This document shows positions 60,501 through 64,000 of a stretch of 64,000 nt of DNA, piece by piece. Position 1 is the first letter of the stretch, and every line of letters begins with the position of its first letter. The position numbers were made by a program. The stretch comes from Escherichia coli (GTDB lineage Bacteria; Pseudomonadota; Gammaproteobacteria; Enterobacterales; Enterobacteriaceae): assembly GCF_044324785.1 (NCBI RefSeq), contig NZ_CP172128.1; one strand, written 5' to 3'.

Positions 60501-63500
60501 GCATGCTCATTCTGGCCGCCGTGGCCCGTAGGGCATCAACAAATTTATCCTCGACCAGACTACGCAGATCTTCAGGTGTGAGCGTGCGTTGTCCCAGCGT
60601 CTGGGCTGCAGTGGATATTCCTTCGGCTGATGGTTTTACCCGAAGAAAAAAGGCAACGGCAACATCAACACGCATGCGGTCGCGGGTTATGAGACTTTCA
60701 GCCGCTGCACGACTGACTTCCAGCTTCAGGGTGTTCATGTTGACGGGAATTGTTTCGTGAAAAATGGGCATAACAATTGCACCGCCACTCATTACCACTT
60801 TTTGGCCTCCCAGACCTGTGCGGACAAAGGCCTGCTCTGCCGATGCCCGGCGGTACAGGCGGGCAAATATCAGCCCGATAACGAACAGGGTGAGGACCAG
60901 CGCTATAACGGTAAACAACCATCCCGGAAGATTAAACATAGTGAGAACCTCTGTATATGTCGGGATTAAAGAACATCCGGCCAGGGATTCAGTTCGCCCA
61001 GCCAGCGGGAACCGGAAAGACGGCAGACAATAATCACTTTGTCTCCTCGTCTGAATTCTTTCCCGGCCTCCGGCTCCAGCAACAGGTAATGAACCTGCCC
61101 GAAGCGGTCTGTGAAGCGACCTTCACAGGGGGAACCCGCCACTGCGTGATAACCGGTGATGGTGGCCATACAGCCGATGAATGCCTCCTCGGTGAGCGCC
61201 GTTGTTTCATCACGGGGTAACCAGGGGGCAATCAGTCTGCCGGTGCGGTGTACGAGAGGACATGTCAGCAGCAGGCAAAGTGGTGTAAGGAGAATGTTCG
61301 GGGCAGGAGCCTGCAGCAGATGAATAATAAGACCCTGCAGGAGAATGCCGGATATACCAAAAAAACCTGCCAGCATACAGAGGACGATCAGCAGGGGGAT
61401 CCGTCCGATGTTCAGCCAGTCCAGCGCCTCTCCTGTCAGCCCCTCCGGTAAATCAGGTGTATCCATAGCTGAAGAGAGGGAGTGTCCGCAGAGCAGGGCG
61501 ATAAGTTCAGCGATACCAGTAAGCAGAACAAAAGTCAGGGCTGCCAGATAGGGTGCGTTATACGCGGTAAGTAACGCCAGTGTCATTTTTCCTCCTGTGG
61601 CAGGTCAGTCAAACAACATTATGGCGTGAAGCTTCCGCTTCTTTAATTGTCAGAAGAAGCATATCGTCAGTCATCAGAAGACAAGGGGATGTCTGCAGGA
61701 GGGGATGATAACAACAGAAGCCTCACGCCGGAATGCGCTTTATGACAACCGGAGAGGACGGATAATCAAAAATGGGACATCCACATCAGCAAACCGCGAT
61801 TTGCGAAAAAAAGTCAGCGGAGAGTGGCTGCCGTTGTGGCTGTCCCGGTATTTCAGTGTAACAGGTGATTGCTGTGATCTATGCCCCATTCGGCTTTCGG
61901 TAAACCTGAATGCCCCACATGAAGAATGCGTGACAGCATGTTTCTGCCGCTGCCGTTCAGGCTGCATTCGCGTCCGTGCGCGAGTATAAAACCTTCATCC
62001 CGGAATATATCTTCCACTTCTGAAGATTCGAGGGATGCCGGATGAATTAATGAAAATGCCACCGGTCTGAGCATTCTGCCCGTGGTGGAAAAGGTGTCTC
62101 TGGTACTGTTCAGCTGCAGGATATGACGTTTACCTGTTTGCGCACGGGAAAGTGTCTCACTCAGCAGCTGGTCGTTCCATGCGCACGTGCCAATATGCCA
62201 TCCCAGACTTCTGCACGCGGAAAGAGCCGAGCGGAAGCGGTACAGGTCGTATAATGCTGCGTTATTGCCACTTTCCAGCAGTGATTTCAGCGTATTTGCT
62301 ACCGGTATGTCCGTATTGGTGGCCAGCAGTTTTCGCAGAGTCGTAAACTCTTCTGCCATTCCTCTGAACTCGCGCATCTGACGGGCAGTGTCAAGCCAGT
62401 TCAGCAGGTAACGCCGGCGACGCCGTTCGTTGTTTATGTTGTCCGGGGCGGTGGAGAGTGCTTCGAGCATATTCTCCAGTAACAGAATGACAGGGTTTTC
62501 CTGGGATAGAATGGTCATAAAGGCGTCCTGAAAAAATGCCCGACAGCCGCTCTCCGTACACCCTCAGGTGTCACCGGTGCCGGGCATTGTGGAAACAGAA
62601 GGGAAAAAAATCCCGGCCATAAAGGCCGGGAAAAGTCGTCAAATTAAGACAGCAATTTTCATGTCAACGCTCCGTCATCAGATACCAGGTGCAGGAGCAG
62701 GGCGATCCTCGACTCCGGCAGAGGCTGTGCATCAAGCCGGAGGAGGTACTGGTAACGCGCTTTTGTCAGCCAGAGGGTGGAGGCAGCATCCAGCTCCTCC
62801 CTGGCTGCCGGATTGAGCGCAGGATCCGGGTACACTTTCATTAAAGACTGAACGATATCCTCCCTGACGGTTTTGATTTCACCGGCCATTTTCACGAAGC
62901 CCAGAAAGGCACTGTGACGGCGCAGGTGAGTGAAAGCGTGGCGTTCGGGGTCTGCTTTCAGGAAGAAGTAACCGGGAAACACGGCGTGTATATGACGACG
63001 GTAACCACAGACTTTATCCGTGCGGCGGACCTTTTTCAGTATCAGGGGTGTCCAGGGAAGGACGTGTTGTTCGGAAAGCCAGGAAAAGAGATGTTCGCGG
63101 TTTTTGCCGGCAGGGATGTACTGTGCCAGATACCAGTTGCGTTGATGTAATTCACTGATATTCAAAATCCGGAACGCTCCGCGAAAATCGATCCCCGCAG
63201 GGGGGCTTCGATGTTGTTGTGAACGGCGAATACATAAAGCATGTGTCGGAAACAGCGGCTGACCCACGTTCAGCCCGGCCTGCAGTTCTGACAGGCACAT
63301 GCACTGTGCACTCTTGTAAGCCTTGTGGACGGTTTCGAGGCGGGCGAAAACCGACAACTCCTGCAAACAGGATTAATGGCTGGCAAATATATTACATAAG
63401 GATGTATATGTGGCAAGAGCTAAGATAAGCAGTTGAATAGATCGTTATATTTGATAAATAAGCATATTATGCTGATTTGTGTGCAGTGTCTGGAGGATTA

Positions 63501-64000
63501 GATCGCTTAAAAATTTTAGGCGATCTCTTCTACTAAAAATGATGAAAAAAACAGCATAAAAGATCGTTTGTGAAATTGTTCATTTTTTGACACAGTTCAA
63601 AAAAACGACGCTTTTTAGGGGGTTAAAGAGGGCAACTGTAACCCTGAGAAATCGTGTCGGCTTTTCAAAGCGGTGGAAAAGGGGTATATTGCGGATCGTT
63701 ATTCAGTGGCTTTTGGGATCCTCGCGGTCCGGAAAGCCAGAAAACGGCAGAATGCGCCATAAGGCATTCAGGATGTATGGCAGAAACGACGGCAGTTTGC
63801 CGGTGCCGGAAGGCTGAAAAAAGTTTCAGAAGGCCATAAAGGAAAACCCCCATAATCTTCTCATCGAACTTGGCGGAACGTTAGAAGATTATGGGGGCCT
63901 CACAGAATACGGGATAAGTATATATGAAACCGTGTCAGAGATTCAACCCTTCGCAGTGTATTAACGCACGGCATTCTGTTTCCGCCATAAGCGACAGCTT

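Follow-up and report, generated by a model that had tools for sequence, protein, structure and literature searches.

We analysed the right end of a 64,000-nt stretch of Escherichia coli DNA (contig NZ_CP172128.1; the whole stretch is called the window below), which is the final 64 kb of the record of an IncK2/Z plasmid of the I-complex. We read its last 700 nucleotides (63301-64000) as a divergent control region, with the transfer regulator gene traB expressed leftward and the replication genes rightward, and give this explanation as a whole a probability of about 0.9. The initial annotation described a regulatory region upstream of a TraB-like gene. That description suits the left half, where the adjacent gene does encode a NusG-family protein (Pfam NusG, 24.8 bits, cut-off 22.2; similarity to RfaH is weak), but the right half belongs to the replicon and not to traB. 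The prominent hairpin in this half (63847-63897) is stem-loop I of the antisense-RNA copy-number switch of I-complex plasmids, an element that is already known. Coordinates of all features are collected in Table 1.

Identification of the hairpin rests on several lines of evidence. Its arms (63847-63861 and 63883-63897) are 15 nt each, 100% complementary and separated by a 21-nt loop, so that both the perfect 15-bp stem and its position were correctly described at the outset. On the plus strand, it lies within a match to Rfam RF01087 (PK-repZ, "pseudoknot of the regulatory region of the repZ gene") that scores 177.4 bits against a gathering score of 44 and covers model positions 1-150 of 150. 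The loop contains CUUGGCGGAAC, including the GGCG motif expected of stem-loop I. A comparison of 10 related plasmids shows double-sided changes that preserve pairing at 5 of the 15 base pairs of the stem, and the loop sequence GGCGG is invariant. The entire stem-loop is identical in sequence in the window, in L008 (typed as IncI-gamma/K1 by MOB-suite) and in L009 (typed as IncFIB,IncI1).

Read from the minus strand, the same hairpin has the properties of the antisense RNA that targets stem-loop I. Its predicted folding energy is -30.2 kcal/mol (z = -4.97), none of 200 shuffled sequences being equally stable, and a run of four U (63846-63843) follows it directly. Inc is reported to end in four U (PMC7491321), and the RNA predicted here agrees. 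A promoter-like site upstream (TTGAAT-18-TATACT) would start the transcript near 63910, which predicts an RNA of ~68 nt. A CopA-like Rfam match is also seen on this strand, at 41 bits, below its gathering score of 60. In IncK-type plasmids, RNAI determines incompatibility, and single bases in the loop matter (PMC10724649).

The hairpin had originally been taken for the intrinsic terminator of a minus-strand coding gene ending just inside the window edge. An open frame does run in from the edge down to a stop at 63900-63902, and UUUU does follow the hairpin on that strand. To read past the edge, we used L001, an internal copy of the identical plasmid locus. The rightward extension recovers the frame but no evident gene: the open reading frame (ORF) has just 41 codons (63900-64025), runs antisense to repY (63924-64013) and to the repA start (64001), matches no Pfam or NCBIfam family, and is unannotated in the records inspected. 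RF01087 and the covariation, moreover, explain the hairpin fully. These data make a coding-gene terminator extremely improbable. The minus-strand transcript terminated by the hairpin is instead the predicted Inc RNA/RNAI itself, and the main role of the hairpin is that of kissing partner of stem-loop I. Hairpins of this kind set copy number and incompatibility, which is the basis of replicon typing, and recognizing them prevents their mis-annotation as terminators.

Downstream of stem-loop I, the leader holds the other parts of the switch. The 29-codon repY/repB leader peptide overlaps the initiator gene, whose GTG start at 64001 lies 11 nt ahead of the leader-peptide stop codon. CCGCCAUAAGC (63982-63992), which includes the distal CGCC (63983-63986), pairs with GCUUGUGGCGG (63997-64007) to form an 11-bp hairpin (63982-64007, structure III) that, in the minimum free energy (MFE) fold of the leader (z = -4.56), buries both the distal CGCC and the GUG start codon. 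The distal CGCC can pair with the GGCG of the stem-loop I loop, and it is invariant in our alignment, which comprises eight B/O/K/Z-type plasmids with a mean identity of 92%.

The pseudoknot mechanism of the I-complex has been worked out for ColIb-P9 (PMC4705826; see also PMC10286972 and PMC10724649), and by homology we hold with high confidence that the right half of the region works as in ColIb-P9, IncB and IncK. A rep mRNA would be made from a promoter near 63662-63690, and its leader would fold stem-loop I. Translation of the leader peptide (from 63924) would open the hairpin that hides the GUG start of repA and the CGCC; the freed CGCC would then pair with the GGCG of the stem-loop I loop, and the resulting pseudoknot would permit RepA translation. 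The ~68-nt Inc RNA, made leftward from the 63946-63917 promoter and carrying the same hairpin plus the U-run, would kiss stem-loop I through its loop, blocking first the pseudoknot and then leader-peptide translation, and would thereby set copy number and incompatibility.

The hexamers of the putative rep promoter (TTTTCA-17-TATATT), and the spacing between them, are kept in IncI1 and other lineages, with a spacer whose sequence diverges. We also considered TTGACA at 63587 as the -35 element; no conserved -10 follows it, and TTTTCA-17-TATATT is the better fit. The plasmids of the B/O/K/Z and IncI1 types that BLAST retrieved carry an identical further leader hairpin (63750-63769) between the promoter and stem-loop I. 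The sequence GCCAUAAG occurs both in its loop and at the distal site of the pseudoknot (repeat family D1, with copies at 63748, 63903 and 63976), and the hairpin might act as a decoy for the GGCG loop.

The typing of the plasmid fits this picture. Positions 63300-64000 (701 bases) are 100% identical to several plasmids of chicken E. coli that MOB-suite types as IncK2/Z, conjugative, MPF_I. In one matching record, NZ_CP100531.1, the match stops at the last base of the circular sequence, and base 1 is the annotated repA start, from which it follows that the window stops one base short of repA. Gene order in L001 is flotillin-family, OB-fold, traC and NusG-family (all leftward), then a 700-bp gap, then repA rightward. 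The initiator is of IncFII type (TIGR03474, 562.6 bits; 290 aa as annotated, L001 4702-5574), with 84-87% identity to IncFII RepA among the matches listed; an initiator of the 343-aa RepZ type, as in IncI1, is not what the downstream gene encodes. The IncFII-type RepA agrees with the IncK2/Z typing, and an I-complex control region joined to such an initiator is what we take to be the IncK2/Z (IncZ/K2) arrangement of the older literature. A mosaic junction between the I-complex control region and the IncFII-type repA thus falls near the end of the window. In E. coli and Salmonella of poultry and human origin, plasmids of the I-complex (IncI1, B/O, K, Z) are major carriers of genes for extended-spectrum β-lactamases (ESBL) and AmpC.

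Comparison with known systems places the region more precisely. Relative to the IncI-alpha plasmids ColIb-P9 and R64 (RF01087), it shares the UUGGCG loop, an antisense RNA ending in U4, a 29-codon leader peptide, a distal CGCC lying 111 nt downstream of GGCG, and a weak Shine-Dalgarno sequence and GUG start buried in a hairpin; it differs by compensatory changes in the stem, by having an IncFII-type RepA instead of RepZ, and by having traB directly as its upstream neighbour, without traA or Hft. From the RNAI/repB/repA systems of IncB, IncK1, IncK2 and IncZ, which belong to the same family, nothing essential distinguishes it. The CopA/CopT-tap-repA system of the IncFII plasmid R1 is alike in pitting an antisense hairpin RNA against the leader of a coupled leader peptide and rep gene, and its RepA is of the same type as the one here. 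In contrast to R1, the match to CopA falls below the gathering score (41 versus 60 bits), a pseudoknot activator is needed in the I-complex type, and the window lacks a copB-like repressor gene upstream.

The left half of the region is AT-rich, as first noted, with a GC content of 0.29-0.37 over 63350-63650. It contains the interrupted palindrome that had been suggested to be a Dam-sensitive binding site: AGATCGCTTAAAA (63500-63512) and TTTTAGGCGATCT (63514-63526), which are complementary at 12 of 13 positions, flank a single nucleotide and contain GATC at 63501 and 63522. A palindrome of equal quality arose in 3 of 1000 dinucleotide shuffles of 63301-64000. Variation among the eight aligned plasmids is concentrated in 63420-63560, yet the GATC sites at 63440, 63501, 63522, 63562 and 63694 are invariant or nearly so. 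The dyad symmetry itself is lost among relatives: conservation is confined to the GATC sites and the bases next to them, the 13 bp inside differ from plasmid to plasmid, and two K1-type plasmids carry TAGATCGTAGATCGTAGATCGTAATTACAAGATCG, with three tandem AGATCGT repeats, in place of the dyad. Conservation of the sites thus supports a Dam-related role, and a symmetric operator finds no support in the comparison. The palindrome is best seen, judging from these comparisons, as a conserved Dam-site pair within a larger conserved module that is not described in searchable papers.

This module extends well beyond the B/O/K/Z types. In IncI1 plasmids such as R64, BLAST similarity is lost left of 63732; despite this, R64-type IncI1 plasmids have seven GATC in 150 bp at an equal distance from repY, and global alignment indicates that GATC site 1 and several short blocks are homologous. 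In IncI1 and further types alike, 360-520 bp separate the GATC cluster from repY downstream of it. As sampling replicon diversity with RepA protein was swamped by IncFII plasmids, we instead scanned metagenome contigs with a conserved 22-mer from the leader, which yielded 86-88 distinct upstream sequences (the number varies with the stretch compared) in at least five architectures. A common order of elements, at constant distance from repY, is found in the sampled lineages: GATCGTT, the CAGAATAWTATTCTG palindrome, the inverted GATC pair, TTGAY-N4-GTCAA and TTTTCA-17-TATATT. Of 88 distinct I-complex sequences, 86 have two GATC sites spaced 20-23 bp from each other, with an interior that is not conserved. 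For the lineage to which the window belongs, represented by 44 distinct sequences, the 16 GATC columns total 5 differences, compared to a mean of 5.9 for each other column, and random sets of four tetramers were as conserved as these columns in 45 of 10000 trials. A search of the literature for Dam, SeqA or GATC in I-complex plasmids found nothing in searchable papers.

Two further palindromes belong to the module. The first, AAGCATATTATGCTG, is Lrp-like: allowing a single mismatch, a scan of the 64 kb for the Lrp consensus hits this site and no other, although one or more such hits arise in 28% of shuffles. Of the 88 distinct sequences, 77 carry a homologous site that deviates from YAGHAWATTWTDCTR at no more than one position, and in 49 the agreement is complete; both forms of the consensus are quoted in PMC5554404. 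Its arms change symmetrically, those in the window differing from the common GAATA/TATTC by a symmetric pair. We looked by eye for a Xer/cer site or an ArgR box at 63447-63480, and rejected both: half-site matches are poor, and the spacing of GAAT-N3-ATTC is wrong for ArgR. The second palindrome, TTGACACAGTTCAA, reads TTGAC-N4-TTCAA in the window and resembles the FNR box TTGAT-N4-ATCAA; 87 of the 88 distinct sequences have it with no more than two mismatches, and other lineages show a perfect TTGAC/T-N4-GTCAA. We could find no convincing -10 at the distance required of a class II site on either strand. FNR activates pil expression and conjugation in pESI, as described in a paper whose text names no site for it (PMC5013300). 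The palindrome at 63587-63600 is a candidate site for the FNR dependence seen there.

A predicted sigma-70 promoter for traB lies just left of these elements, promoter prediction having returned a consensus match, TTGCCA-16-TAATAT (63389-63416), on the minus strand. We propose that host proteins reading the module would modulate this promoter (63416-63389) and perhaps also the rep promoter (63662-63690), and that the methylation state of the Dam sites, read by SeqA and/or Lrp, would do so after replication or conjugative entry. SeqA in vitro requires two GATC sites phased by an integral number of helical turns, given in the same paper first as two to three turns and in its discussion as about three (PMC5145175). 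The window pair, 21 bp apart, is separated by two turns, and such a conserved Dam pair fits the phasing requirement of SeqA on hemimethylated DNA. Dam represses traJ of the Salmonella virulence plasmid, and Dam alters the affinity of Lrp at pap (PMC10306973). The likeness to these two systems is a transfer-regulator promoter with an upstream Lrp-consensus site and conserved GATC, as predicted here; the difference is that the GATC sites of the window flank the Lrp-like palindrome, ~25-55 bp off, instead of lying inside it. The module also resembles SeqA-bound clusters (oriC, the dnaA promoter, the P1 oriR heptamers) in having several GATC in AT-rich DNA, with a pair two turns apart; in the K1 type, GATC recurs in 7-bp tandem repeats. 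The right arm, GATCTCTTCTACT, resembles the oriC 13-mer. In contrast to those clusters, the region is not an origin and has 4-7 sites only, and sequestration here would be conjectural; the ori of I-complex plasmids lies downstream of rep.

Several observations weigh against the reading developed so far. The promoters in the region are predicted from consensus matches only, three having been found where 1.4 would be expected, and RepA is of IncFII type, not RepZ type. Nowhere in the window do four GATC sites lie closer together than in the cluster at 63440-63565, yet 42% of shuffles contain one equally tight; the significance of the cluster consequently derives from its conservation and not from the window alone. 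Bases flanking the GATC sites (AGATCG, GATCGTT) are conserved as well, making a different sequence-specific protein conceivable. As for Lrp, GATC was not found inside the Lrp-like site, the nearest sites being ~25, 35 and 55 bp from the palindrome centre, and flanking GATC of this kind would speak against Lrp; in pESI, pilV transcription was unchanged in an lrp mutant (PMC5013300). Finally, three metagenomic variants (L032, L061 and L094) have lost the module by rearrangement. One lineage, L097, keeps it without a traB neighbour. Taken together, these cases suggest that the module moves together with the replicon, which can probably replicate without it. We regard Dam-methylation control through SeqA and/or Lrp as a tentative proposal, for which we would put the odds a little short of even.

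Three other explanations of the GATC sites deserve consideration. The sites may have no function of their own, being conserved inside other constrained elements (UP elements, H-NS binding or curvature) or simply by ancestry. The insignificance of the cluster in the window alone is in keeping with this, neighbouring blocks such as AAAAGATCGTTTGTGAAATTG are invariant too, and the sampled sequences are related to one another. On the other hand, BLAST-divergent lineages keep 4-7 GATC in ~170-190 bp of DNA with 27-35% GC, where ~0.5 would be expected, some of them newly placed; the plasmid is otherwise poor in GATC, with 170 sites observed over the whole window and 275 expected from trinucleotide counts. 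We therefore judge this explanation somewhat unlikely. As an aside on composition, the corresponding ratio of 0.62 is the lowest among the 4-bp palindromes tested, together with that of CTAG (8 sites in 64 kb).

A second possibility is that the module acts mainly on the replicon, SeqA on hemimethylated GATC transiently silencing rep mRNA after passage of the fork and leaving traB unaffected. The cluster does keep its distance from repY (-360 to -520) whatever is on its left, including in L097, and a spacing of 21-22 bp corresponds to two helical turns (PMC5145175). But 135-257 bp separate the cluster from the predicted rep start downstream, the predicted traB promoter being closer, variants without the module exist, and copy number in this plasmid family is set post-transcriptionally (PMC4705826). 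On balance, an effect confined to the replicon appears unlikely.

Lastly, the palindrome could be the operator of a dimeric sequence-specific repressor, encoded by plasmid or host, with GATC falling incidentally in the half-sites. The 12/13 dyad symmetry, rare in shuffles, would be explained in this way, as would the flanking G (GATCG...CGATC) kept in most lineages at a constant spacing of 21-22 bp and the occurrence of three GATCGTT in 260 bp, out of nine in the whole window. Variation of the inner 13 bp between lineages, the three tandem AGATCGT repeats of the K1 type, and the extra GATC nearby in other lineages are hard to reconcile with such an operator. Nor is any plasmid protein common to all lineages, as Rep types differ and L097 has no traB neighbour. 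We consider a repressor operator to be quite unlikely, and retain the conserved pair of Dam sites as the preferred description of the palindrome.

A second potential link between transfer and replication lies in the predicted 5' leader of traB. Here, just to the left of the interval first annotated, the minus-strand RNA can form a hairpin, CGGUUUUCG-CCCGCCU-CGAAACCG, whose loop, like that of the Inc RNA, is complementary to the GGCGG of the stem-loop I loop. Hairpins occur at the homologous place in IncI1 (11-bp stem, loop CCCGCCAA), in type C (loop ACCGCCA), and in L056 and L066, with stems unrelated in sequence, and 5-8 contiguous bases are complementary to the stem-loop I loop in every lineage. 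In L031 and in L023-type sequences, single substitutions leave the bases paired, as G.U, in the minus-strand RNA alone. L097, which lacks the traB neighbour, also lacks the hairpin, and no further copies were found in the 64-kb window. In the window's lineage it is thermodynamically unremarkable (z about 0). Because the sequences were chosen by the GGCGG motif, this hairpin remains a lead and not a result. One possible role is to connect tra with rep control through RNA-RNA contact; another is to let TraB load or pause there. We considered a likeness to the ops element of RfaH (GGCGGTAG) as well; GGCGGT is on the plus strand, which is the template strand for leftward tra transcription, so the orientation is wrong and the likeness is at most a lead. 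In IncI1, a T-run follows the tra-leader hairpin on the plus strand, and the hairpin scores as terminator-like.

The boldest version of our proposal combines the two: a host-read epigenetic module (Lrp-consensus palindrome plus phased Dam sites) and a tra-leader hairpin whose loop, with CCGCC or, in IncI1, CCGCCAA, mimics that of the Inc RNA, giving two links between tra and rep, neither described in searchable papers. We think this combined reading improbable. If true, the module would provide a mechanism for the classical transient state of high-frequency transfer, and the tra-leader hairpin would tie the expression of transfer genes to copy control, either by kissing stem-loop I or by giving TraB a place to load or pause. 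Dam, Lrp-consensus and FNR-like sites beside the predicted traB promoter may bear on the repression and transient derepression of transfer in I-complex plasmids.

Cis-acting DNA in this interval has been implicated in transfer before. In the IncI1 plasmid pESBL, the 270-bp Hft between traA and repY controls transfer frequency, in a manner that the Hft studies finally call "complicated" (PMC4288162, PMC5801416). Like the module, Hft is cis-acting non-coding DNA in the tra-rep intergenic interval. Mapping the published coordinates onto R64 places Hft beside traA, 300-600 bp left of the GATC module; traA and Hft are both missing from the window.

We also compared R64 alleles with the published drd11 derepression mutations. 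Three R64-specific substitutions in traA/Hp1 match the published X1-X3 in number and gene position, and the one at -1088 creates the stop codon TGA from CGA, which is the change reported for X3. Two more differences are specific to R64, both beyond the ~600 bp that the drd11 study sequenced. One is an A-to-G change in the palindrome (the CGG allele), which we considered as a drd11 derepression mutation and rejected, as the identical 61-mer is present in 10 of 1434 plasmids, field isolates included; it is a rare natural allele. The other is a 1-bp deletion (L010 ~2612-2616) beside the tra-leader hairpin (2620-2649), found in 3 of 1436 matching plasmid records, all of them R64-like, and it may be a further drd11 lesion.

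Table 1. Features of the divergent control region and the adjacent traB-like gene (window coordinates; a dot marks features without strand)
Feature	Position	Strand	Basis or remark
traB-like gene (NusG/RfaH paralogue)	62659..63300	-	start annotated by the NCBI Prokaryotic Genome Annotation Pipeline (PGAP) in identical plasmids = window 63300
Hairpin in predicted traB 5' leader, CGGUUUUCG-CCCGCCU-CGAAACCG	63330..63353	- (RNA)	fold and comparison
Predicted sigma-70 promoter for traB, TTGCCA-16-TAATAT	63389..63416	-	consensus scan; hexamers invariant in 8 related plasmids
GATC site 1 (GATCGTT)	63440..63446	+	homologous to IncI1 site; kept in most lineages
15-bp palindrome AAGCATATTATGCTG, Lrp-like	63460..63474	.	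14/15 match to Lrp consensus YAGHAWATTWTDCTR
Interrupted palindrome, two inverted GATCG sites 21 bp apart	63500..63526	.	shuffles and comparison
GATC site 4 (GATCGTT)	63562..63568	+	inside invariant block
FNR-like palindrome TTGACACAGTTCAA (TTGAY-N4-RTCAA)	63587..63600	.	comparison
Predicted rep mRNA promoter, TTTTCA-17-TATATT	63662..63690	+	consensus scan
Leader hairpin, GAAUGC-GCCAUAAG-GCAUUC	63750..63769	+	repeat family D1; upstream of stem-loop I
rep mRNA leader control element (Rfam PK-repZ)	63839..63988	+	RF01087
Predicted antisense Inc RNA/RNAI, ~68 nt, hairpin + UUUU terminator	63843..63910	-	ends predicted
Stem-loop I, Inc RNA target	63847..63897	+	loop UUGGCGG, GGCG at 63872-63875
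Predicted Inc RNA promoter, TTGAAT-18-TATACT	63917..63946	-	consensus scan; hexamers invariant in alignment
repY/repB leader peptide ORF	63924..64000 in window, ends 64013 beyond	+	29 codons; L001 4625-4714
Structure III, 5' arm and loop	63982..64000	+	MFE fold of L001 4538-4730

Several neighbouring features complete the description. The annotated start codon of the traB-like gene is the ATG at 63300, rather than the TTG farther upstream at 63366. A canonical intrinsic terminator (62604-62631, minus strand; 8-bp stem with 7 GC pairs, then U7) lies 28 nt past the traB stop and before traC; its location immediately behind a gene for a NusG/RfaH paralogue fits a role of TraB as a processive antiterminator. 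Directly downstream of traC, at 59245-61586 on the minus strand, are genes for a flotillin-family protein (564 aa) and an OB-fold protein (206 aa, read as NfeD-like), which are unusual cargo within a transfer-regulation block. Elsewhere in the window, matches at the Rfam gathering level comprise two sok antitoxin RNAs of the hok/sok type (13818-13974 and 14538-14695), a STAXI RNA (711-868) and an AgrB antisense RNA (10539-10628).

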